Below, one piece after another: positions 36,942-56,174 of a stretch of 64,000 bases of DNA (the first letter of the stretch is position 1; the number at the start of each line of letters is the position of its first letter). The position numbers and the translations under genes were made by a program. The notes under the pieces were generated by a model. That model searched no databases and was not told the DNA's origin. It saw only the letters and a program-made list of their open reading frames with translations. Source of the DNA: Minisyncoccota bacterium (lineage in GTDB: Bacteria; Patescibacteriota; Minisyncoccia; UBA6257; XYB1-36-10); assembly GCA_041651415.1 (NCBI GenBank), contig JBAZJH010000002.1, forward strand, positions 111,075 to 175,074. Reading direction: 5' to 3'.

Positions 36942-37319
36942 GGGGATGTAAGGAATCGACGATTTAAGGACGGTAGAAATGGCAGGCAGGATTGAAGATC
37001 CTCAAAATCTTCAAAAAAGAAAAGTGCCAACTTTAATAGGCAGCCAGCTTTTGCTTTTGCTTAAGCTTGGAAGCCGTCTTTTATAGGCGGCCGCTCACTC
37101 TTTCTTTTTGCCTGAAGAGGTAAGAGGAGCGAAAAAAAATTCAGGCTTTTCCGACTCTTTTCTCGGTTTTATGGGAAGGAGAAAAAATAAAAGCCGAACA
37201 AACAGAATTTTCTGACGCGCTTCAAGTTTTGTTTGTAAAAAAAAGAGCGCGCCTAAGCCATGTAGAAATTTTTATCAGTCGTAAATCGGACATGGGTTCA
37301 AATCCCATCATCTCCACCA
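36942..37319 (+). ncRNA. ssrA: tmRNA (SsrA); predicted tag reading frame ...ANFNRQPAFAFA*
   Basis: 5' GGGGATGTAAGGAATCGACG and 3' tRNA-like end GGACATGGGTTCAAATCCCATCATCTCCACCA; internal ORF gcc aac ttt aat agg cag cca gct ttt gct ttt gct taa; directly downstream of smpB. Confidence 0.8.
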
Positions 37320-45300: not shown

Positions 45301-46953
45301 CTATTTTAGTTCACGGGCGGTTTTAACAAACCAGTTGTTGATGTCGTCAAAGCGACTAGGAGGAGTGATAATAAGTTTTGTTCCAAAACCGTTTAGATTT
45401 TTTGAAGTGATATAAACATAGTAAGGAGAATAAAGAAAGACGGCGGGGACATCTTTGCCAATAAGAGATTGGAGAGCGGAAAGGTCGCCTATCCGTTCTT
45501 CTTCATCAGAGGTTTTTCTGATTTCTTCAATCAGTTTGTCGACAGTTTTATTTTCGAATAAAGAAAGGTTTAATCCGGGGTGCAGTTTTTCCGAAGAATG
45601 CCAGAAGGAAAAAATGTCGGGACTGCCTCCCAGGATATTACCGAAAATCAGAAGTTCGTAATTGCGGTTTTTGATAGCGTCGTTATTTATTTCTTCGGGA
45701 GAAATAATGATGATGTTAGTTTTGACGCCGATTTCCCGCCAAGCTTTTTCGAGATAGTTGGCAGTGTTAACCAAAAAATCCACTTCCGGAACAACGAGAT
45801 TAAATTCAAGGGAAACGGTCTTATTTTTTATTTTCTTTTCGCGGACTTCATTTTCAATCAGTTTCCAGCCGGAATTTTCGAGAATTTCTTTGGCTTCAAG
45901 AGCTTCGTTATTGGAAACTTCACTGATATTTCGGCCGATAAAATTGGGAGTGATGGGACCAAAGATGGGGTCGGCCCAGCCGCCGAATATTTTTTCAATC
46001 AAATCTTTTTTATTGACGGCGGCATCAAGAGCAAGGCGGACATTTTTGTCCTGCAGGGCGGGGTTGACACTTTGGTTCATAAAAACGGCATAATAGCGGG
46101 GGGTGGCCATTTTATAGATATTGTTGGAGCGGGAAATAAAATCATATTCACTTTTAGTGAGTCCGCCCAAGCCGTCGATTTTAGCAAAATTAAAATCTTC
46201 ACTGGCCTTTTTCAAACTGGTATAGAAATTAATATCCAAATTTTCGACAAAAGGAGAGGATTTAAAATATTTATCGTTAGCAACGAGAGAATATTTAGTG
46301 ATGAAGCCGTCTGATTTCTTTTTGTAGGAATCAAACTTATAAGCGCCGCAGCCGACCGGCTGGAGATTATAATCAGAGAGCCGCCAGTTGTTTAAGGGAA
46401 TGTCGGCATAAATATGTTTGGGAATAATATAAAGCTTTTTCAAATTTTCTTCAAAAAAAGCGTAAGGAGAACTCAGTTTGATGGAAATTTCCAATTCGCT
46501 GACGCGATTCATAACGATGCCTTGCCAGGTGGCGCTCAAGGGAGAATGAAATTCCGGGTCCTGAATTTTATTTAAAGTGAAAATAATATCGTCGCTTGTT
46601 AGTTTTTCACCATCGTGCCAAAAGAGATTATCTTTCAGCCGGATTTGCCAGGATTGATTGTTGTTAGTCGGTTCTATTTTTTCCGCCACTTCAAAGGCGT
46701 TGCAAAAGATAAGAGAAATGAGGTCGCGGTCGGCGTCATTATTGCCGGAAATGATGGGGTTAACAAAAACCGGCTGACCGACAATTCCTTCCGTAAAAAG
46801 TCCGCCTTTTAGAGGGACGGGAACAGTAAATTTATTGAAAAGAATAAAACCAAGAAAAATAAGGGAAGCGAGGGAGACAAAGAAAAAAGTCAAAAAAAGC
46901 TTCCACTCAGAAGGCTTTAAATTTCTGACAATGGCTTTAGCTTTATACCACAA
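45301..46953 (-). CDS. ABC transporter substrate-binding protein, family 5 (peptide/nickel type), membrane-anchored
   Basis: 550 aa with N-terminal TM helix; SBP_bac_5-like sequence; no adjacent permease or ATPase genes. Confidence 0.65.
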   Translation of the reverse strand: MWYKAKAIVRNLKPSEWKLFLTFFFVSLASLIFLGFILFNKFTVPVPLKGGLFTEGIVGQPVFVNPIISGNNDADRDLISLIFCNAFEVAEKIEPTNNNQSWQIRLKDNLFWHDGEKLTSDDIIFTLNKIQDPEFHSPLSATWQGIVMNRVSELEISIKLSSPYAFFEENLKKLYIIPKHIYADIPLNNWRLSDYNLQPVGCGAYKFDSYKKKSDGFITKYSLVANDKYFKSSPFVENLDINFYTSLKKASEDFNFAKIDGLGGLTKSEYDFISRSNNIYKMATPRYYAVFMNQSVNPALQDKNVRLALDAAVNKKDLIEKIFGGWADPIFGPITPNFIGRNISEVSNNEALEAKEILENSGWKLIENEVREKKIKNKTVSLEFNLVVPEVDFLVNTANYLEKAWREIGVKTNIIIISPEEINNDAIKNRNYELLIFGNILGGSPDIFSFWHSSEKLHPGLNLSLFENKTVDKLIEEIRKTSDEEERIGDLSALQSLIGKDVPAVFLYSPYYVYITSKNLNGFGTKLIITPPSRFDDINNWFVKTARELK

Positions 46954-47152
46954 CGTTTAAGATCGATAAAATCACAAAACAGACGAGAGAAACGACGGTT
47001 AAAATAAAAATTATTTTTTCCACGCCTCTTCTTCTCCCGCGAAAAGCCGATTCGCCTCCCCCGAAAGTTCCAGAAAGACCGGATGACCTTTCTTGAATCA
47101 GAACGAGAGCAACGAGAATTATTGAGAAAATTATTTGAAGGGTAGTAATCAT
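46943..47152 (-). CDS. secG: preprotein translocase subunit SecG
   Basis: Two TM helices flanking the Gly-rich loop LIQERSSGLSGTFGGGESAF. Confidence 0.7.
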   Translation of the reverse strand: MITTLQIIFSIILVALVLIQERSSGLSGTFGGGESAFRGRRRGVEKIIFILTVVSLVCFVILSILNVVV

Positions 47153-47514
47153 TTTTTATAGACAGATCTAGCGGAAAAGCCGATTAACAGGCTTAAAGCG
47201 CTGAAAATGACAGTGGCAACCAAAAGATCGCTTATCGAATTGATTTTAATGTCATCGCTCAAAAAGTCAAGAAGGTAGAGAAGTCCGGCATTGATAAAAA
47301 AACTTAAAATTCCAAAAGTAATAAAGATAAAAGGAGAGAGAAAAAACTTTATTAAAGGTTTCAGAAAGATATTAATCAAGGCGAGAGCTCCGGCTAAAGA
47401 AAAAAGAGCTTCCAAATTTTCTTTAACTTCAAAGCCGGAAAGATAGCGATTGGCAATCAAGATGGCAACAATATTAGTTAAAAGCGAAAGAAAGAGTTTA
47501 GAGATGATTTTCAT
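47149..47514 (-). CDS. small polytopic membrane protein (phage-holin-4_2/DUF-like), hypothetical
   Basis: 121 aa, four predicted TM helices. Confidence 0.4.
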   Translation of the reverse strand: MKIISKLFLSLLTNIVAILIANRYLSGFEVKENLEALFSLAGALALINIFLKPLIKFFLSPFIFITFGILSFFINAGLLYLLDFLSDDIKINSISDLLVATVIFSALSLLIGFSARSVYKK

Positions 47515-49049
47515 CTTATTATGTATTTTAGCAGACTTTGTCCGGTCATATCGTTCGGTTTTTCCACTCCCAAAAGTTCAAGAACGGTTGGAGCGACATC
47601 AGAAAGAAGACCGACAGTGGTTGATTCTTCGGAAGAGACTTCGCTTTCGCTTTTTTTTCTTTCATATTCGCGAGCTATGAGAATAAAAGGGACAGAATTT
47701 TTAGTATTTTTAGTTTCGGGTAAGCCGGTTTCCGGGTCCACCATTTCTTCGATGTTGCCGTGACTGCCGACTAAAATAACGGGAGTGTCGCTTTCCATAG
47801 CGGAACGGATAACTTTATTAACTTCGTCATCTATTATTTTGACAGTGTTTTTAGCAGCCGCGAGATTGCCGGTGTGGCCGATAATATCAAAGTTGGCATA
47901 GTTGACGACAATCAGATTAAAAACATTTTCATTAATGGATTGAATGGCGCGAGCGGTGATTTCCGAGGCGCGCATAGCGGGAAACTGTTCCTGGTGAGGG
48001 GTGCTGTTAGAAGGAACGAGAACCCGATATTCGTTTGGAAAAGGCTTTTCGTTAAAACCGTTCAGAAAATAAGTAAGAGGATAATATTTTAAAGTTTCTC
48101 CGATTTTAATTTGGGTTTTTCCCTGGTTGGAAATGATTTTTCCAAGAGGATTTTTTATGGAATCTTGAGGAAAGGCGACGGAAGCGGAAAAACCGGGGTC
48201 ATATTCGGTAAAAGTAACAAAAGAAATATCCTTGAGCGGAAGACGGGTAAATTCTTCAAATGATTTATCGATAAAAGAAGAGGCGAGCTGCCAAGAGCTG
48301 TCTTCGCTGAAGTTGAAGAAAATAACGGAATCGTTGTCTTTTATTATTTGCGGATTTTCTCCAACAAGAGACGATTCAACAAATTCATCACTTAAGTTGC
48401 GGCTGTAAGCGGACTCAAGAATTTCCGGAACACTTTTTGAAATTTTATTCTGGCCGGTTAAGGTTTTGTAAACTTTTTCAGTGCGGTCCCAGTTTTCATT
48501 TTCGTCCATAGCGTAAAAGCGGCCGGAGAGAGAAGAAACTTTGCTTGGGTCGGGAAGCTTTTTTATCAGAGCGGCGGCGGATTTAGCCGGACTATCTTTG
48601 CCGTCAGTAAACAAGTGGAGAGAGTAAGAAGCGTTTTCCGAATCGGCCATTTTAATCAAAGCTTCAAGGTGTTCAAAGGAAGAATCAATATTAGAAGAGC
48701 TTAAAAGTCCGACGAAATGAAGACCGGCATTTTTTTCTTTGGCGGATTTTATAGCTTCGAGAATTTTTTCATTTTTAAAAAATTCGCCGCTTTTTATAAA
48801 GAGAGAGATGCGGGGATATGATTGATAAATAATTTTTCCAGCGCCAATCGAGAGATGGCCGATTTCACTATTGCCCGGTTCTCCCCAAGGGAGGCCGACG
48901 GCAATGCCGGCAGATTGAAGGGAGCCACCCGGAAAATTTCTTTTTAAATATTCAAGGGTTTTGGGATCGGCTGAGTGGAGAGGGTTGTTTTCTTCCCTTT
49001 TTCCGACACCCCAACCGTCTAAGATTAAAAGAACAAGATTTTTTTTCAT
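47511..49049 (-). CDS. gpmI: 2,3-bisphosphoglycerate-independent phosphoglycerate mutase
   Basis: LLILDGWGVGKREENNPLHSADPKTLEYL... and metal-binding Ser/His/Asp motifs. Confidence 0.9.
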   Translation of the reverse strand: MKKNLVLLILDGWGVGKREENNPLHSADPKTLEYLKRNFPGGSLQSAGIAVGLPWGEPGNSEIGHLSIGAGKIIYQSYPRISLFIKSGEFFKNEKILEAIKSAKEKNAGLHFVGLLSSSNIDSSFEHLEALIKMADSENASYSLHLFTDGKDSPAKSAAALIKKLPDPSKVSSLSGRFYAMDENENWDRTEKVYKTLTGQNKISKSVPEILESAYSRNLSDEFVESSLVGENPQIIKDNDSVIFFNFSEDSSWQLASSFIDKSFEEFTRLPLKDISFVTFTEYDPGFSASVAFPQDSIKNPLGKIISNQGKTQIKIGETLKYYPLTYFLNGFNEKPFPNEYRVLVPSNSTPHQEQFPAMRASEITARAIQSINENVFNLIVVNYANFDIIGHTGNLAAAKNTVKIIDDEVNKVIRSAMESDTPVILVGSHGNIEEMVDPETGLPETKNTKNSVPFILIAREYERKKSESEVSSEESTTVGLLSDVAPTVLELLGVEKPNDMTGQSLLKYIIR

Positions 49050-49336
49050 AAATTGCCGATTTTTGACAAGAAGGGAATAATTAGTATATTATTATTGTAT
49101 CATATTTTAAAAGAGTCATTTTGAAAAAAGAAATTAAACGAGCTTCTTAGCTTGCGGTTTCTGGAAAAAAAATAAATTTATGTTTTTTGCAAGGAATTCT
49201 TTAAAGCAATTTTTAACCTTACTAAAAAAGGAAAAAAGAGCTGCTTTTAAAAAAGTTTTAAACTTCATAGGAGGGCGAAATTAAACATTTTCTTATTTTT
49301 ATCTTTCAGAAAAACGCTTAAGGGGCGCTAAATTTT

Positions 49337-50866
49337 ATGATTTTAGAAAATAACTTGGTTTTTTTGGCGGGGCTGGCGGCGGTTTCGGCGATAATCGGAT
49401 TTTTTCTTAACCGGCTGATTTCTATTTATTTGACGGGAACGGCGGAACAGACGGCAAAAAAGAGAATAGAGGAGGCGCAGACAAACGCGCAAGATTTGGT
49501 TTTAAAAGCCAAAGAAAAGGCAGTGCAGATTTTAGAAGAGGCAAAGGAGGAGGAAAGGGTGAAAAAGGCCCAGCTTGATAAAATGGAAGAAAGGATTTTA
49601 AAGAAAGAAGACCAGTTGGAAGAAGGAACAAAAGAAGTGGAAAAACAGAAAGTGAAAATAGTTCAGGATGTGGAAAAGTTGAAATTGGCCAAACAGCAGA
49701 TAGAAGAAATGAAAGGAAGAGTGGCGGAGGAATTAGAAAAGGCGGCGGGAATGAAGAGAGAGGAGGCGAAAGAAAAATTAATGAAAGAGATAAGAGAAGC
49801 AAGTCGAGAAGATTTGGCGATATTGTCGCAAAAACTAGAAAAAGAAAGAAGAGAGGAAATAGAAAAAAAGAGTTTGGAAATCATAACTTCTTCAATTCAG
49901 AGATACGCAAGGTCAAATATTTCGGAGATGACAACAAGCGTTTATCATTTGCCGGACGAGGATTTAAAGGGAAAAATCATCGGACGGGAAGGGAGAAATA
50001 TAAGAACAATAGAGAGAATGACCGGAGTGGAGTTGATAGTTGATGAAGCGCCGGACAGCGTGGTGCTTTCTTCTTATGACCCGATGCGAAGAGAAATAGC
50101 GAGAATAGCTCTTGATAAACTTTTAAAGGATGGAAGAATACAGCCGGCAAAAATAGAAGAGAAAGTGGAAGAAGCCAAGCAAGAACTGGCAAAAAGAATG
50201 CAGGAAAAGGGAGAAGAAGCGGCTCTTGAGGTGGGGGTTTATGATTTGCCGAAAGAAATAATCCAGCTGCTCGGAAGATTATATTTCAGAACAAGTTATG
50301 GGCAGAATGTTTTGAATCATTCAGTGGAAATGGCGCATATCGCGAGAATGATTGCGTCAGAGCTTGGATTAAACGCGGAGATAACCAAAAAGGCGGCTTT
50401 GCTTCACGATATTGGGAAAGCGATAGACCACGAAGTGGAAGGAACGCACGTGGAAATCGGAAGAAAGATATTGAAAAAATACAATATAGACGAACAAGTG
50501 ATCAGAGCGATGGAATCGCATCACGATGATTATCCATATTCTGTGCCGGAAGCTTTTGTGGTGGCTGCGGCAGACGCCTTATCGGCGGCAAGGCCGGGAG
50601 CAAGAAGAGAGACGGTAGAGAACTTTATAAAGCGGTTGGAAGAATTAGAGCAAGTGGCTAAGAGCTTTAACGGAGTGCGCGATGTTTACGCTATTTCAGC
50701 AGGAAGAGAGCTGAGAGTGTTTGTGATTCCGGAAAAAATAGACGATTTTGGAGCGCTGACACTGGCAAGAGATATCGCTAAAAAAATAGAATCAGAGCTT
50801 AAATATCCGGGAGAAATAAAAGTGAATGTAATAAGGGAGATGAGAGCGGTGGAATACGCAAAATAA
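49337..50866 (+). CDS. rny: ribonuclease Y
   Basis: N-terminal TM helix, coiled-coil, KH domain (GKIIGREGRNIRTIE) and HD domain (LLHDIGKA...H). Confidence 0.9.
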   Translation: MILENNLVFLAGLAAVSAIIGFFLNRLISIYLTGTAEQTAKKRIEEAQTNAQDLVLKAKEKAVQILEEAKEEERVKKAQLDKMEERILKKEDQLEEGTKEVEKQKVKIVQDVEKLKLAKQQIEEMKGRVAEELEKAAGMKREEAKEKLMKEIREASREDLAILSQKLEKERREEIEKKSLEIITSSIQRYARSNISEMTTSVYHLPDEDLKGKIIGREGRNIRTIERMTGVELIVDEAPDSVVLSSYDPMRREIARIALDKLLKDGRIQPAKIEEKVEEAKQELAKRMQEKGEEAALEVGVYDLPKEIIQLLGRLYFRTSYGQNVLNHSVEMAHIARMIASELGLNAEITKKAALLHDIGKAIDHEVEGTHVEIGRKILKKYNIDEQVIRAMESHHDDYPYSVPEAFVVAAADALSAARPGARRETVENFIKRLEELEQVAKSFNGVRDVYAISAGRELRVFVIPEKIDDFGALTLARDIAKKIESELKYPGEIKVNVIREMRAVEYAK

Positions 50867-51097
50867 GAGAAGAAAATCATTTAATTTTTACTGGTAGAAA
50901 GTTAAATAAAAGAGGAGGGTGGGGTGATAATATTGCCCCGATAAAATACGGGGTAAATATTTTTCTTTGTAAAAAAGACCGTTTGGATTTTAAGGTTTTT
51001 GAGGAATTTGGCTTTTTTATTCAGGAAATGCTATAATCAAGCCATAATTAGAAAAGCAGGAAAGGTCGTTTTAGCTTTTAAACTTTAAAATTTCTCA

Positions 51098-51373
51098 ATG
51101 AATAAGGAAAAATTGGTTGATGTAGTAATGGAGGCGGCGGGACTGGAAACAAGAACTTCCGCCAAAACCGCGGTTGACGCTGTTTTTGACGCTATCACAA
51201 AGGAACTCTCAAACGGAGAGGAGGTAGCGATCGCCGGCTTTGGAACTTTCAAAGCTTCAAAGAGAGCTGCAAGAATGGGAGTAAATCCCAAAACTGGAGC
51301 AAAAATCCAGATTGCGGCGACAACAGTTCCGAAATTCAAAGCTGGAAAAGCTTTGAAGGATGCAGTAAAGTAA
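51098..51373 (+). CDS. hup: DNA-binding protein HU
   Basis: MNKEKLVDVVMEAAGL...GFGTFKASKRAARMGVNPKTGAKIQIAA... canonical HU beta-arm. Confidence 0.85.
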   Translation: MNKEKLVDVVMEAAGLETRTSAKTAVDAVFDAITKELSNGEEVAIAGFGTFKASKRAARMGVNPKTGAKIQIAATTVPKFKAGKALKDAVK

Positions 51374-51400
51374 ACGAAAAATTAGGCAAACTAATAAAAA

Positions 51401-51432
51401 ATTCCTCCGCTTTAGACGGAGGAATTTTTTTA
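51401..51432 (+). terminator. intrinsic terminator after hup
   Basis: attcctccg-ctttaga-cggaggaat followed by TTTTTTTAT. Confidence 0.6.
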
Positions 51433-51439
51433 TAAAAAG

Positions 51440-52342
51440 TTAAAAACCTAATATTTTTTCAACGGACTTACTGACTTTAAAAAAATCCTGATAAGCTTCT
51501 TTTATTTTATCAAGTGATTCTTTGATAAGCTTATCGGCAAATTCTTTTTCTTCTTCCGGTTTCACTTCTTCTTTTTCTTCAGTTTTTTCGGATGTTTCTT
51601 TATCTTCCCCTTTTACTTCTTGGTTAGAAATTAAAGCATCGGGAGTGGAAGTGGCAGATGTCTCTTCAATAAACTTTTTAAAGTCTTCATTAATTAAAGA
51701 ATAAGCTTTGTTGTTCAGTTCTGAAGCGGCGCTTATTTTTTTAGATGAGCTTGAAAGAAGGTTATTTATTTCTTTATTTTCGATAGAAAGCATTTTCTTA
51801 AGAGAAGAGGAAATTTTAGCCAGCCGGACTTCGGCAGTTCCAATAATATTTTTTTGTTTGAAGAAATAAGTAAAATTCACCACTTTTTTAATAAGGGGAG
51901 AATAAACATTTTGGCGCCAATCAAGAATCTCTTTGGCAAGTTCTTTTATTTTTTCCCGGTCGTCTTTTATTTCTTTAAAGACGTTATTTTTTTCTTCAAA
52001 AAATTTGAAAAACTCATCTATTTTCAGGAGAAAAACTTCTCTTATTTTTCCATCTTCATCTCCCAGTTTTTTGAGGTTGTTAAGTTCCGATTTTATTTCT
52101 TCCAGCTCTTTTCCGGAGCAAGAGATAATGGAATCAAGAAGAATTTTTTTAGCTTCAAATTCAAGGTCGGATTTTTTCTCTTCGGAAAGCTTAAGGTCAT
52201 CTTTAACAAGAAGAAGATTGTTTAATTTTTCTTCAATTTGTTCATTGCAGGTTTTTTCAGCAGCCAAGGCGGTAAAATTTGAAAAAGAAAACAAACCAAG
52301 AATAGCAAGTAATAAAGAAGAAGTTTTAATTATTTTTCGCAT
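51440..52342 (-). CDS. secreted coiled-coil protein, hypothetical (signal peptide)
   Basis: N-terminal MRKIIKTSSLLLAILGLFSFSNFTALAAE; highly charged helical repeats. Confidence 0.45.
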   Translation of the reverse strand: MRKIIKTSSLLLAILGLFSFSNFTALAAEKTCNEQIEEKLNNLLLVKDDLKLSEEKKSDLEFEAKKILLDSIISCSGKELEEIKSELNNLKKLGDEDGKIREVFLLKIDEFFKFFEEKNNVFKEIKDDREKIKELAKEILDWRQNVYSPLIKKVVNFTYFFKQKNIIGTAEVRLAKISSSLKKMLSIENKEINNLLSSSSKKISAASELNNKAYSLINEDFKKFIEETSATSTPDALISNQEVKGEDKETSEKTEEKEEVKPEEEKEFADKLIKESLDKIKEAYQDFFKVSKSVEKILGF

Positions 52343-52346
52343 TAGT

Positions 52347-52826
52347 TTAATCTAAAATTTCGCTTAAAGCTTTATCGATGTTTTTGCCGGTCGGATCTTC
52401 CAGTTTAAGAAGATTTGTTTCTTTATCCAAAATGACTTCTTCAAAATAAACAGGGTCGTCTTTAATGGTTTGGTTTAAGGCGGTTTTAACAGTTTGGTTG
52501 GATTCTTGATAATAAGCGAGTTTAGAGATGTTGACATCAATGCCTAAGCTTTCCGCTTCGGCTTCAAGTGTTTTGAGGTCAAGGCCGGCAATAACCATTG
52601 GAAGATTTGATTTTTCGAGATAGTTAAATCCGCCAAGAATAAGAACAATAAGAGCGGCAGTCAGGGAAGTAGCGGTTAAGTATCTGAAAATTTCAGAAAC
52701 TTGGCTGGGCATCCAGTAAATAAGTTTTCTATTGGAGGAAAGCACTAAAAAGCGGGACTTCTCGGAAAAGTTTTTGTCAGGAATAATGCTTTTTAAGCTT
52801 TTAAGTTGTTCAATTATTTTCTCCAT
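52347..52826 (-). CDS. putative membrane-spanning anti-sigma factor
   Basis: Single TM helix; overlaps the stop of the upstream ECF sigma gene. Confidence 0.4.
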   Translation of the reverse strand: MEKIIEQLKSLKSIIPDKNFSEKSRFLVLSSNRKLIYWMPSQVSEIFRYLTATSLTAALIVLILGGFNYLEKSNLPMVIAGLDLKTLEAEAESLGIDVNISKLAYYQESNQTVKTALNQTIKDDPVYFEEVILDKETNLLKLEDPTGKNIDKALSEILD

Positions 52827-53364
52827 TTTCTTCTTTTAGAATTTTCTTTAATTTGTTTACGGCTCTAAATTGAATAAGTTTTACCGCGCCGATACTTTTA
52901 TCAAGAGCAAGAGCAACTTCTTTTATGGGCAGGTCTTCAACAAAGCGCATAATCAGGACATCTTGCTGTTCTTCGGTTATTTTAGCCATCGCATTCCTTA
53001 TTCTCTCAAGTTCCATTGATTTTTCAGCAAGCAGTTCTGGAAAGGAAGAACTTTCGATAGCATTTTCGTCCATAGATTCAAAACTGGAAACCGGTTTTTT
53101 TGAGCGATAATAATCAATAACTTTATTTTTCGCTATTTTATAAAGCCAGCTGGAAAAAGGAACTTCTTTTATTCTGAAACTTTTTATATTCTGCCAAGCG
53201 CTTAAAAAAACCTGGTGAGTAATATCTTCTGATTCTTCTCTATTGCCTACTTTGAGAAAAATAAAACGATAAATTCTTGGCTGGTGAAAGTCGTAAAGTT
53301 CTCCAAAACTTTCCCTTTTTCCGGCACAAGCTTGCCTTATTAGATTTTCTTCTTTTTCTATCAT
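52810..53364 (-). CDS. ECF-type RNA polymerase sigma-70 factor
   Basis: Region 2 (RIYRFIFLKVGNREESEDITHQVFLSAWQNIKSF) and region 4 HTH (LPIKEVALALDKSIGAVKLIQFRAVNKL); start placed at the MIEKEENL Met. Confidence 0.75.
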   Translation of the reverse strand: MIEKEENLIRQACAGKRESFGELYDFHQPRIYRFIFLKVGNREESEDITHQVFLSAWQNIKSFRIKEVPFSSWLYKIAKNKVIDYYRSKKPVSSFESMDENAIESSSFPELLAEKSMELERIRNAMAKITEEQQDVLIMRFVEDLPIKEVALALDKSIGAVKLIQFRAVNKLKKILKEENGENN

Positions 53365-53472
53365 ATTACAACGATTTTTTAAGGGATAAGTTACCCAAAA
53401 GAACCGATAAAATGCTCTAAAACACAAGATTATTTAAAGAGAGAGCAAGTTTTCCAAGTGGAAACATTAAGA

Positions 53473-53760
53473 TTATTGTTTATCAATTTCTTGAGAAAAA
53501 TCATCAAGAGAAGAGGACTCGGATTCAAGGTCGCTAAATATGTCTTTTACTGAACCAGTTTGCGGCTTGGAGTTATCAATTTTTTCGTTTTGGTTATCAT
53601 TTAGACTCTTTTTTTCGGAATTAGTTATGGGTTCTGCCAAATTGGCATTTTCCTCCGGAGCGGGAGTTTGGGATTTAATGAGATAATGAACAAAAAAAAC
53701 TATAAAAATGATAGCTAAAACAATGGAAAGAGTCCAAAAGATATTTATTTTTTTAGGCAT
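53473..53760 (-). CDS. small membrane protein, hypothetical
   Basis: N-terminal TM helix; low-complexity C-terminus. Confidence 0.3.
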   Translation of the reverse strand: MPKKINIFWTLSIVLAIIFIVFFVHYLIKSQTPAPEENANLAEPITNSEKKSLNDNQNEKIDNSKPQTGSVKDIFSDLESESSSLDDFSQEIDKQ

Positions 53761-53918
53761 AGACGATTAAAGCACAAAATACAAATTTAAAATGACAAAT
53801 ATTAATAAAAAACGATGTTTTTATTATACAACGGCAATTTAAGAATTACTAACAAAAAAGCAAATTGAGGAAAACAATCTAATTTATATATAACCAGAGA
53901 AAAATAAAAGAATAATCT

Positions 53919-53992
53919 TGGAGCGGGATACGGGAATCGAACCCGCGTCTTCTGCTTGGAAGGCAGGCGCACTGCCACTGTGCTAATCCCGC
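53919..53992 (-). tRNA. tRNA-Gly (anticodon TCC), CCA encoded
   Basis: Reverse complement GCGGGAT-TA-GCAC-AGTGGCA-GTGC-G-CCTGC-CTTCCAA-GCAGA-AGAC-GCGGG-TTCGATT-CCCGT-ATCCCGC-T-CCA. Confidence 0.9.
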
Positions 53993-54104
53993 TTTTTTCT
54001 TGATATTAAAGATAATACTTTGATTTTTTTTATAAAGCAAGAGCTTAAAAGAAGCTTTTTAGCAAGATTGATTATTTTTTTGAAAGGAGATAAGATGCTT
54101 CAAG

Positions 54105-54713
54105 ATGAATATGCGGTTTTTTGATTTTCCGAACAAAATTAAATTTCCGGCTTTGTTTATTGCCATAATTCTTTTGGCTTATTTGTTTTGGAGAATAGTT
54201 TTAGTCGGAGGGTCTTTTGTGCCAAAGGAATTTTTAGAAGCAAATCAGCAAGGAGCTTTAATAGCCACTCAAATAGTGGATTTTTCAAAAAAATCGGTTA
54301 GCAATATTGATAAAATCAATGATTTAGACAGAGAGGAAAATTATTCCGAGGCGCTCAATCTGATTATGGAAGAAATAAGCAGAAACGAAGAGATGAAAAA
54401 AGAAGCTTATAATCTTTCGTTTGAATTGGCTAAAATGGCGGAAACTTTAAAAGAAATAAAACCGAAAGTGGCAACGGAAACAGCTTTGCGAGGAATAAAT
54501 TATGAAACTTCTTTAATAATCCGGTTGATAAACTACAACGCTTTTATGGGAAATCTATTAATAACTTTGAGAGATAAATTTACGGGGAAGATGGTGGAGG
54601 AAGGAAAAGTGGGAGAGATAATCAAAAAAATAAACGACGAGGCGACGGCGATAAATGATTTAAACGAACAGTATAAGGCGGCGATGAATGAGTTTGATGA
54701 GAAAATAAAATGA
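54105..54713 (+). CDS. hypothetical membrane-anchored protein (202 aa)
   Basis: N-terminal TM helix; coiled C-terminal region. Confidence 0.45.
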   Translation: MNMRFFDFPNKIKFPALFIAIILLAYLFWRIVLVGGSFVPKEFLEANQQGALIATQIVDFSKKSVSNIDKINDLDREENYSEALNLIMEEISRNEEMKKEAYNLSFELAKMAETLKEIKPKVATETALRGINYETSLIIRLINYNAFMGNLLITLRDKFTGKMVEEGKVGEIIKKINDEATAINDLNEQYKAAMNEFDEKIK

Positions 54714-54838
54714 AACTTCACGGCCTTAAGGCCGTAGAATCTTAAAGTTTCACCCCGACCAAAGTCGGGTTTTATTAAATCTTTACCGCGAAAACTTCTA
54801 AACTGACATGCGGGGTTTGAAGCTGAGATTTAATAAAA
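54712..54838 (+). repeat. copy D of the ~125-bp MITE/REP-like repeat, followed by a CTCCGA-type terminator (54841-54868)
   Basis: GAAACTTCACGGCCTTAAGGCCGTAGAATCTTAAAGTTTCACCCCGACCAAAGTCGGGTTTTATTAAATCTTTACCGCG...GAGATTTAATAAAAG. Confidence 0.7.
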
Positions 54839-54871
54839 GATCCTCCGATACAATCGGAGGATCTTTTATGT

Positions 54872-55208
54872 TGGTGCCGCGAGAGGGAATCGAACCCCCG
54901 ACACGATGCTCTTCCAAATAATGAATCTCAAATTACTTTGAGGATTGGACTATATCATCACCCATATAAATGGGGCTAGGCGCTTCCTCCAACCTAACGT
55001 CGGAGTACTCCGTTAAGGATAGTCTCTGAACCTTTCTAGCTCCAGTTCATAAAAAAACTGGGGCTGGACTTGGCTGCTGATTGCCCAGCTTCAGTTTTTA
55101 AAAAAACTGAAGCTGGGTTTCCAGCAATTCACCTAGTTTTCATTTCCAAATTACTTCGGAACGGCCCAAAGAGTTTAGGCATCTGCTCTACCACTGAGCT
55201 ACCGCGGC
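54872..55208 (-). tRNA. tRNA-Phe (anticodon GAA) interrupted by a group I intron in the anticodon loop; exons at 55177-55208 and 54872-54914
   Basis: 5' exon GCCGCGGTAGCTCAGTGGTAGAGCAGATGCCT and 3' exon GAAGAGCATCGTGTCGGGGGTTCGATTCCCTCTCGCGGCACCA join to a canonical tRNA-Phe (loop CUGAAGA, variable loop GUGUC). Confidence 0.7.
54915..55176 (-). ncRNA. group I self-splicing intron (262 nt) within tRNA-Phe
   Basis: 5' splice after U33, with exon GCCU pairing to a GGGC internal guide near the intron start. The intron ends in G. The core contains CAGAGACTA ... ATATAGTCC, matching the P7 strands of characterized group I introns (cf. Tetrahymena CAGAGACUA / AUAUAGUC). Confidence 0.65.
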
Positions 55209-55288: not shown

Positions 55289-55415
55289 TTCACTACTCCT
55301 CGCCTACGGCTCGTGCGTTTTAAAACCCCTCGGTTTTAATATTTCCGCTACGGGAAAACTCCCGTTTTCCCGACCCCTTTCCCGTTCAATTCCCTAAATA
55401 AGTAAAACTTATTTG

Positions 55416-55486
55416 TCGGGCTGCTGGGAATTGAACCCAGTCTGCTTGCTCCCAAAGCAAGTGTACTACCGGTATACGACAGCCCG
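55416..55486 (-). tRNA. tRNA-Pro (anticodon TGG)
   Basis: Reverse complement CGGGCTG-TC-GTAT...anticodon stem CTTGC/GCAAG with loop TTTGGGA, T-arm CTGGG-TTCAATT-CCCAG, acceptor CAGCCCG, discriminator A. Confidence 0.85.
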
Positions 55487-55559: not shown

Positions 55560-55631
55560 GCCCCCGTAGCTCAATGGATAGAGCAGTAGCCTTCTAAGCT
55601 ACTGATGAGGGTCCGATTCCTTCCGGGGGTA
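55560..55631 (+). tRNA. tRNA-Arg (anticodon TCT)
   Basis: GCCCCCG-TA-GCTC-AATGGAT-AGAGC-A-GTAGC-CTTCTAA-GCTAC-TGAT-GAGGG-TCCGATT-CCTTC-CGGGGGT-A; terminator hairpin at 55634-55662. Confidence 0.85.
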
Positions 55632-55949
55632 CAAAAAATCCCGAAATTATTTTCGGGATTCAACAGGGAGAGAAAAAATTTTGCATTCAGTTTTTTTATT
55701 TTTTTCGTTTGGTTTTTCCTGAAGAATGTGGCGGATTTTTGGTCGGCCGAATTTGGGGCTTGAAGGAAGCGAATAGACGGTTGCTTTTAAGCCGAGTGTT
55801 CGATCTCTGAAGTGAAGTATAAAAAGTTTTTCCATTTTTTCTCCTTATTTTAAGAGCTGATTTTTTTATACAGGTTTTGAGAAACAAAAGCAAATTTAAA
55901 AATTGACCGAAGGAGATTTTTAAGATAGGATTTTAAAGAAAATTAAGAT

Positions 55950-56022
55950 GGTGCCTATAGTTTAACGGTTAGAACTTCCCCCTGTGGAGGGGACGGTTCG
56001 GGTTCGATTCCCGATAGGCACC
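55950..56022 (+). tRNA. tRNA-His (anticodon GTG) with G-1:C73
   Basis: G-1 + GTGCCTA acceptor paired to TAGGCAC, anticodon stem TCCCC/GGGGA with loop CTGTGGA, T-arm TCGGG-TTCGATT-CCCGA, discriminator C. Confidence 0.85.
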
Positions 56023-56174
56023 CTAGGTTCTAATGATATTAAGTTAGGGGGAAAAATTGGGCGAGGTTGGAAATTAAATATATTTTAGAAGAACTCAGGA
56101 TTGATTGACAAGTTTGGTTTTATTTTGTATTTTGTAATCAGAAAAGTTGAAAACTAAATAAAGGAGAGAAGGGG

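Follow-up and report, generated by a model that had tools for sequence, protein, structure and literature searches.

A probable IA-like group I intron splits the anticodon loop of tRNA-Phe(GAA) in a Patescibacteria bacterium

The tRNA-Phe(GAA) gene on the minus strand of a 64-kb stretch of DNA (hereafter the window) is interrupted between U33 and G34 by a 262-nt insert (AAACUC...UUAUUUG, 54915-55176). We hold with high confidence that this insert is an ORF-less, IA-like group I ribozyme intron of a Candidatus Paceibacterota (Patescibacteria/CPR) bacterium, its behaviour being that of a vertically inherited and obligatorily spliced element. The compared sequences show directly where exons and intron meet, that the insert has a group I fold and that covariation runs through the whole family, and Rfam, ARAGORN and covariation identify the insert concordantly. 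An initial annotation of this DNA had proposed a group I intron of this length at this site, a placement which ARAGORN with intron search (-i) returned exactly to the base. The intron belongs to an already catalogued class (2020, 2026), whose members share its host tRNA and insertion site, are homologous to it and come from Patescibacteria.

The 5' exon (55177-55208, minus strand, 32 nt, GCCGCGG...GAUGCCU) was delimited by ARAGORN -i, by the fold of the joined exons and from the sequence itself, which reads GCCGCGG UA GCUC AGUGGUA GAGC A GAUGC CU from 55208 to 55177 and supplies the acceptor 5' strand, the D-arm, the 5' strand of the anticodon stem, C32 and U33. The 3' exon (54872-54914, minus strand, 43 nt including the encoded CCA at 54874-54872), delimited by ARAGORN -i and the joined-exon fold, reads GAAGA GCAUC GUGUC GGGGG UUCGAUU CCCUC UCGCGGC A CCA from 54914 to 54872 and continues with G34 A35 A36 G37 A38, the 3' strand of the anticodon stem, the variable loop GUGUC, the T-arm, the acceptor 3' strand and A73. 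ARAGORN -i called this locus as tRNA-Phe(gaa) with a 262-nt intron, displayed as 'tgcct-Intron-gaaga', and when the exons are joined it draws a canonical 75-nt tRNA-Phe(GAA) cloverleaf with discriminator A73 and encoded CCA; the ligated exons are predicted to read ...GAUGCCU-GAAGAGCAUC... across the junction. Default ARAGORN, which does not search for introns, and the Rfam tRNA model found no tRNA at the tRNA-Phe locus, although the same runs did detect the neighbouring Gly(UCC), Pro(UGG), Arg(UCU) and His genes.

These neighbours were placed by ARAGORN at 53919-53992 (tRNA-Gly(UCC), minus strand), 55415-55486 (tRNA-Pro(UGG), minus), 55560-55632 (tRNA-Arg(UCU), plus) and 55951-56023 (tRNA-His, plus), in agreement with the tRNA cluster of the initial annotation, and the duplicated 3' fragment of tRNA-Pro that it had listed proved to be a perfect 30-nt direct repeat (AATTCCCAGCAGCCCGACAAATAAGTTTTA, minus strand, 55432-55403 and 55289-55260). 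The repeat comprises 13 nt of trailer together with the acceptor 3' strand and the 3' half of the T-arm of tRNA-Pro, and about 113 nt of G-rich, well folded sequence (-36.8 kcal/mol for 118 nt) lie between its two copies. A permissive search of this sequence gave no Rfam match at E<=1, and neither the window nor the fetched loci described below contain a second copy. The repeat looks like an att-type duplication that an insertion at the 3' end of tRNA-Pro may have left behind. About 880 nt separate tRNA-Phe in the window from the next tRNA downstream, Gly(UCC), and the opposite strand of this interval carries a 202-aa ORF that belongs to no known family; in many relatives a tRNA-Gly(GCC) gene follows the intron-bearing tRNA-Phe by 30-70 nt, and in others by about 750 nt (loci L002, L010, L018, L019, L032, L035 and others in our numbering). 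The window also contains a tmRNA gene (36942-37319, plus strand, 136.7 bits in Rfam), for which ARAGORN gives the tag GRSLFLFA*, apparently taken from the wrong ORF; a frame lying upstream, in the usual position, gives ANFNRQPAFAFA*, a more typical tag.

Five nucleotides past the CCA of tRNA-Phe, a 15-bp perfect hairpin (AAAAGAUCCUCCGAU UGU AUCGGAGGAUCUUUU) followed by a U-rich tail can be read from the sequence (54835-54867, minus strand). It probably terminates transcription of the tRNA-Phe unit, a role suggested by its form and position. A consensus scan listed no promoter on the tRNA-Phe strand, and the hairpin after the CCA was also absent from its list.

A covariance-model search identified the insert independently of the tRNA. 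Rfam RF00028 (Intron_gpI) matched 55186-54926 with 109.8 bits, against a gathering score of 50, and an E value of 1.2e-27, over the whole of the model (positions 1-253 of 253), so that a match by chance is excluded. The insert is a real group I intron, and most likely a self-splicing one. No minus-strand ORF of at least 40 aa was found within its 262 nt, and a homing endonuclease ORF was found neither there nor among the flanking ORFs, which show only sigma-70 and DUF2178 domains; the intron thus lacks the equipment of a mobile (homing) intron.

Homologues were collected by two pattern scans. In GTDB species-representative genomes, a pattern that combined the J8/7-P7 block with the 3' exon of tRNA-Phe matched nine stretches, eight of which are real and all of these in Patescibacteria metagenome-assembled genomes (MAGs), including Paceibacterota, Liptonbacteria, Doudnabacteria and four labelled Saccharibacteria; the ninth, a 'Spirochaetes' match (L008), was dropped as a chance match within GC-rich coding DNA. 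In metagenomes, a pattern of 5' exon plus guide returned 45 stretches, of which about 16 were dropped as intron-less Lys or Val tRNAs or as other chance matches to the pattern. The same pattern scan of viral contigs gave no match and hence no sign of a phage-borne copy. With the window, 29 intron-bearing loci (8 genomes and 21 metagenome loci) were obtained, comprising 22 distinct alleles, every one of which is a tRNA-Phe(GAA) interrupted at 33/34 with U at -1 and a terminal omegaG, the intron being 207-280 nt long. The Rfam gathering score was passed by 17 of the 19 loci scanned, L022 and L023 falling below it. The 22 alleles together with the published Doudnabacteria sequence constitute alignment A1 (23 sequences), on which the fold described below was evaluated.

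At the 5' end of the intron, P1 (55164-55180; this and all following elements on the minus strand) is formed by exon GCCU (55180-55177) and intron AAA (55176-55174) with the guide UUUGGGC (55170-55164). The pairing of GCCU with a GGGC guide had been part of the initial annotation and is present in the Rfam alignment; it places a U33.G wobble at the 5' splice site, which recurs as U.G in 23/23 sequences, and the pair adjacent to it alternates between A-U and G-C across the alignment. An overlapping guide segment, CUCUUU (55168-55173), can form the 6 bp of P10 with the 3' exon GAAGAG (54914-54909). Four to six contiguous P10 pairs are possible in all 23 sequences, and since the exon side is invariant, the support that they give is one-sided. 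At the other end the intron closes with omegaG at 54915, as had been noted, and the published sequence, like each of the 22 distinct alleles, has a G there.

These details bear on whether the splice sites could be off by one or two bases, or the anticodon be another one, as happened with Asn/Thr and Asp/Ala in published surveys. ARAGORN and tFind are known to misplace the ends of Patescibacteria tRNA introns (PMC13011429), and in our set ARAGORN sets the intron one base later where a homologue intron begins with G. The first three intron bases (AAA in the window, GAA in most relatives) occupy guide bases which would later bind the anticodon GAA, and it is this sharing of guide bases that accounts for the one-base ambiguity in some homologues. 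In those that begin with G, however, either placement gives an identical mature GAA tRNA, and in the window a shift by one base needs A at -1 and yields the anticodon AAA, whereas 33/34 alone gives U-1 in the U.G pair of P1, G at omega, a 7-nt loop and a Phe-type tRNA body (GUGUC, A73). We therefore regard a wrong boundary or tRNA identity as extremely unlikely, and retain the intron between U33 and G34 of tRNA-Phe(GAA).

Beyond P1, the insert contains every element of a group I core. P2 (55144-55161) is a hairpin of 7 bp with a GUAA (GNRA) loop and compensatory changes in 7/7 pairs. The 5' strand of P3, CUAGGUG (55130-55136), has its partner at 54982-54976, where the covariation model places the 3' strand CGCCUAG (54976-54982); P3 is paired in 100% of cells, shows compensatory changes in 3/7 pairs and occurs as CUAGG/CCUAG, UUGGG/CCCAA, UCGGG/CCCGA, CUGGG/CCCAG and other variants. 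In the P4-P5 domain (55075-55126), P4 pairs UGCUGG (55126-55121) with UCAGCA (55080-55075), three of these pairs having compensatory changes, and encloses J4/5 (AAA), a 16-bp P5 hairpin (55117-55084) and J5/4 (CAA). The base of P5 has four compensatory pairs, and only 71% of its cells are paired because this variable region is poorly aligned. P6 and its extension (55031-55073) consist of an invariant CC/GG and a P6a/b hairpin (55068-55035), in which P6a has compensatory changes in 7/7 pairs.

The guanosine-binding helix P7, which is pseudoknotted with P3, pairs its 5' strand GAGACUA (55020-55026), with a bulged A and aligned to the Rfam core, with UAGUCC (54952-54947). Both P7 strands that the initial annotation had pointed out, CAGAGACUA and AUAUAGUCC, are present, and the helix is invariant and 100% paired in 23/23 sequences, with its bulged nucleotide and conserved G-C pair; because P7 and P6 are both invariant, covariation carries no signal on either. 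P7 is set apart from the 3' strand of P3 (P3') by two further hairpins (54987-55019), P7.1 (UCC..GGA, 55019-55009) and P7.2 (CUCCGAC/GUUGGAG, 55005-54987), with the linker GUA between them. A long hairpin CCU(U)AACG/CGUUAGG that can be drawn across the same segment was rejected, as comparison with homologues favours P7.1 and P7.2. P8 (54961-54974) is a CCCAU/AUGGG hairpin with compensatory changes in 3/5 pairs, and is followed by J8/7 (UGAUGAUA) and the P7 3' strand UAGUCC (54947-54960), which fall within the nearly invariant GAUGAUAUAGUCC block and the Rfam core. P9 (54927-54942), a CUCAAA/UUUGAG hairpin with a GUAA loop, is found in 11/23 homologues and has compensatory changes in 6/6 pairs.

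As a whole, the manually built P1-P9 model, with its P4-P6 and P3-P8 domains and the P3/P7 pseudoknot, comprises 57 pairs, of which 34 change on both sides; 95.3% of its cells are paired over the 23 sequences. Its covariation score is 0.437, as against 0.145 for shuffled alignments, and none of 500 shuffles reached the observed value on any measure, while controls in which the structure was slid along the alignment gave covariation of 0.049-0.105 with 31-50% paired. RNAalifold independently predicted P1, P2, P3, P4, P6a and P8, with compensatory changes in 25/47 of its pairs. Its pairs at alignment columns 191-202 and 299-336 were rejected as spurious and the canonical P7 was substituted, as RNAalifold is unable to draw pseudoknots and had put these pairs in the place of P7. 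The minimum free energy of the intron is -103.5 kcal/mol (z = -6.6 vs shuffles), and its single-sequence minimum-energy fold recovers P2, P4-P5, P6a, P7.1, P7.2, P8 and P9 and misses P1, P3 and P7, as is expected for a pseudoknotted ribozyme; the case for the core was made without this fold.

The host and the history of the intron are documented by a close relative, Ca. Paceibacterota STF2_126 (JAQVXM01, L001), whose contig is collinear with the window over about 8 kb (46798-55057). This synteny with a Ca. Paceibacterota MAG, together with the Patescibacteria origin of all true genome matches, places the window in Patescibacteria. Genes are 84-86% identical between the two contigs, and the part of the intron present in L001 together with the 3' exon is 93.8% identical, a sign that constraint on the intron is no weaker than on the proteins; P7.2 is still paired in L001 despite 3 substitutions. 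With no homing endonuclease gene, and with the same site occupied in a syntenic relative, the intron behaves as one that is vertically inherited and obligatorily spliced.

Constraint of this kind is difficult to reconcile with an intron that has lost its activity within a tRNA pseudogene, the functional tRNA-Phe being encoded elsewhere in the genome. Such a second gene could lie outside the visible sequence, which amounts to 64 kb of the genome. Against this, both exons are perfect, the catalytic-core elements are all intact and invariant across the 23 sequences, the helices stay paired through compensatory changes, and the compared segment is better conserved than the neighbouring genes. The initial annotation had raised the matter of intron-less tRNA-Phe alleles in relatives; none was found in the 64-kb window or in the 54 fetched loci, but one such gene, 92% identical, occurs in another Patescibacteria genome (PMC13011429), so that such alleles do exist in the phylum. 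In the Doudnabacteria genome GCA_016699995.1, the one complete genome that carries a homologous intron, all three tools used by Nakagawa et al. count one tRNA-Phe gene (PMC13011429 Table S2). Splicing is thus probably essential there and, by analogy, here, where the interrupted gene is probably the only tRNA-Phe gene of the genome. A pseudogene is in our judgement very improbable, and an obligatorily spliced intron in a functional gene is the reading that we keep.

With regard to subgroup, the classical IC3 tRNA introns have, to our knowledge, a compact core in which P3' directly follows P7, without P7.1 or P7.2. By the Michel and Westhof criteria, subgroup IA is recognized by the extra helices P7.1 and P7.2 that it carries between P7 and P3'. 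The window intron carries 35 nt in two hairpins at this place, as an IA intron would and an IC3 intron would not, and its modelled fold is accordingly IA-like, unlike that of the classical IC3 tRNA introns. This assignment agrees with the survey of Nakagawa et al. 2026 (PMC13011429), which reports no IC and nearly only IA introns among Patescibacteria tRNA introns.

Single-sequence folds of the P7-to-P3' segment revealed two architectures among the homologues. In the first (12 sequences, including the window), P7.1 (UCC[C]...[G]GGA) and GUA are followed by a P7.2 that varies in sequence yet is always paired; in the second (11 sequences, including both published examples), a single hairpin takes their place, and its loop, GUGAG(U)CCCAACAAUAA, is conserved. 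The P7.1+P7.2 variant is represented by the window, L002, L004, L010, L011, L018-L023, L027 and L048, and the single-hairpin variant by L003, L005-L007, L015, L034, L043, L045, L046 and L050. That this 17-18-nt loop is almost invariant suggests that it may make a tertiary contact. A loop resembling it is also seen in a non-Phe row of the Williams 2020 seed alignment.

Membership in an IA-like subgroup also bears on whether the RNA would act alone. Self-splicing is often weaker in IA-type introns with peripheral P7.1/P7.2 than in IC3 introns, and some IA introns require a host factor; an intron that has the group I fold and is inefficient on its own in vivo, needing a cofactor of the aminoacyl-tRNA-synthetase type or a chaperone, would be in keeping with the AU-rich composition of this one (44% G+C) and with its long AU-rich P5 and P6 extensions. 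Patescibacteria proteomes, however, are very reduced, and the GNRA loops on P2 and P9 together with the complete core argue for an autonomous fold. Moreover, Nakagawa et al. report protein-free self-splicing in vitro for related IA introns in the Asn and Asp tRNAs of Patescibacteria (PMC13011429). Dependence on a protein is thus unlikely, and we favour autonomous splicing.

Catalytic activity, which we infer from the sequence, would follow the general group I pathway. The tRNA-Phe gene would be transcribed as a single precursor, in which the guide UUUGGGC pairs with exon GCCU and intron AAA to form P1, with U33 in the U.G wobble. An external guanosine bound by P7 would then attack after U33. 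Next, the guide stretch CUCUUU would pair with the 3' exon GAAGAG (P10) while the terminal G (54915) moves into the G site. Attack by the 3'-OH of U33 after this terminal G would ligate the exons to a normal tRNA-Phe and release the intron. As P1 and P10 make use of G30-U33 and G34-G39, the last two pairs of the anticodon stem would have to open during splicing. In L003, L004, L005, L006, L018 and L019 a partial mimic of the anticodon stem can form, in which the final 8-10 nt of the intron pair with the strand of that stem that the 3' exon supplies (GACGC...GCGUC, for instance, or, around the 3' splice site, GCUC/GAGC); the window intron has no clear pairing between its 3' end and that strand.

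The claim of the initial annotation that a tRNA-Phe(GAA) host with an insertion at 33/34 is undescribed does not hold. Williams 2020 (bioRxiv 10.1101/2020.01.27.920355; tFind), who expanded the four classical tRNA intron classes to 21, has in the seed alignment a row 'Mba55.Phe.2Ug', in which position 2 denotes 33/34, and Table 1 of Nakagawa et al. 2026 (PMC13011429) has the entry 'GCA_016699995.1 Phe (GAA) 33/34', from Doudnabacteria, with the sequence in Table S3. In alignment A1 the GCA_016699995.1 intron aligns with that of the window over all core blocks, and the Mba55 row has the same blocks: the invariant GGGCC guide, GGUGAAUU, AAUC..AGCCAAG, GAGACUA, AGCGCC and GAUGAUAUAGUCC. To the shared host tRNA and phylum are added the anticodon, the insertion site, U-1 and omegaG. 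The window intron differs from the published Phe introns in length (262 nt vs 211 nt), in having P7.1+P7.2 where these have a single hairpin, and in its P9 hairpin with a GNRA loop and its extended P5 and P6; its host is from Paceibacterota, not Doudnabacteria as for GCA_016699995.1.

The Patescibacteria introns found to self-splice in vitro in 2026 are likewise small, mostly ORF-less, IA-type introns of the anticodon loop from the same phylum, but they sit in other host tRNAs and at 35/36 instead of 33/34. The site 33/34 is itself also that of the classical tRNA-fMet intron; the cyanobacterial tRNA-fMet(CAU) intron (fMet.2Ug) shares the position after U33 and the splicing logic, and differs in its host tRNA, its listing as IC3 and its cyanobacterial host. 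The classical IC3 introns of Anabaena and plastid tRNA-Leu(UAA) (34/35), Azoarcus tRNA-Ile(CAU) and Agrobacterium tRNA-Arg(CCU) (both 36/37) resemble the window intron as bacterial anticodon-loop group I ribozymes which draw P1 and P10 from nucleotides of the anticodon stem-loop and have a similar J6/7-P7, but they occupy other sites and hosts, and the window intron has two extra hairpins between P7 and P3'.

An ORF-less intron has been retained in what is probably the only tRNA-Phe gene of a lineage that has lost almost all non-essential sequence, and the intron segment is more conserved towards the nearest relative than the neighbouring protein genes are. Both observations could be read as signs that splicing is a control point, at which the supply of mature tRNA-Phe would depend, through the guanosine-requiring first step, on the guanine-nucleotide or Mg2+ status of the cell and the alternative peripheral modules (P7.1+P7.2 or the hairpin with the 17-18-nt loop) might be lineage-specific tuning or docking elements. 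Regulatory splicing of this kind is raised in general terms by Nakagawa et al. 2026 (PMC13011429); for the intron described here we offer it tentatively, as an unlikely proposal.

Given that tRNA group I introns of Patescibacteria, including that of Phe(GAA) at 33/34, are already published, the intron opens no new question. What our analysis adds, to a class so far known as table rows and one seed-alignment row, is a fold backed by covariation and a 23-sequence alignment, a Paceibacterota host, the spread of the class over several Patescibacteria lineages and its two peripheral-domain variants. For the organism itself the consequence is one of gene content: default tRNA finders overlook the split gene, so that the genome would seem to be without a tRNA-Phe, and annotation of the intron corrects that.
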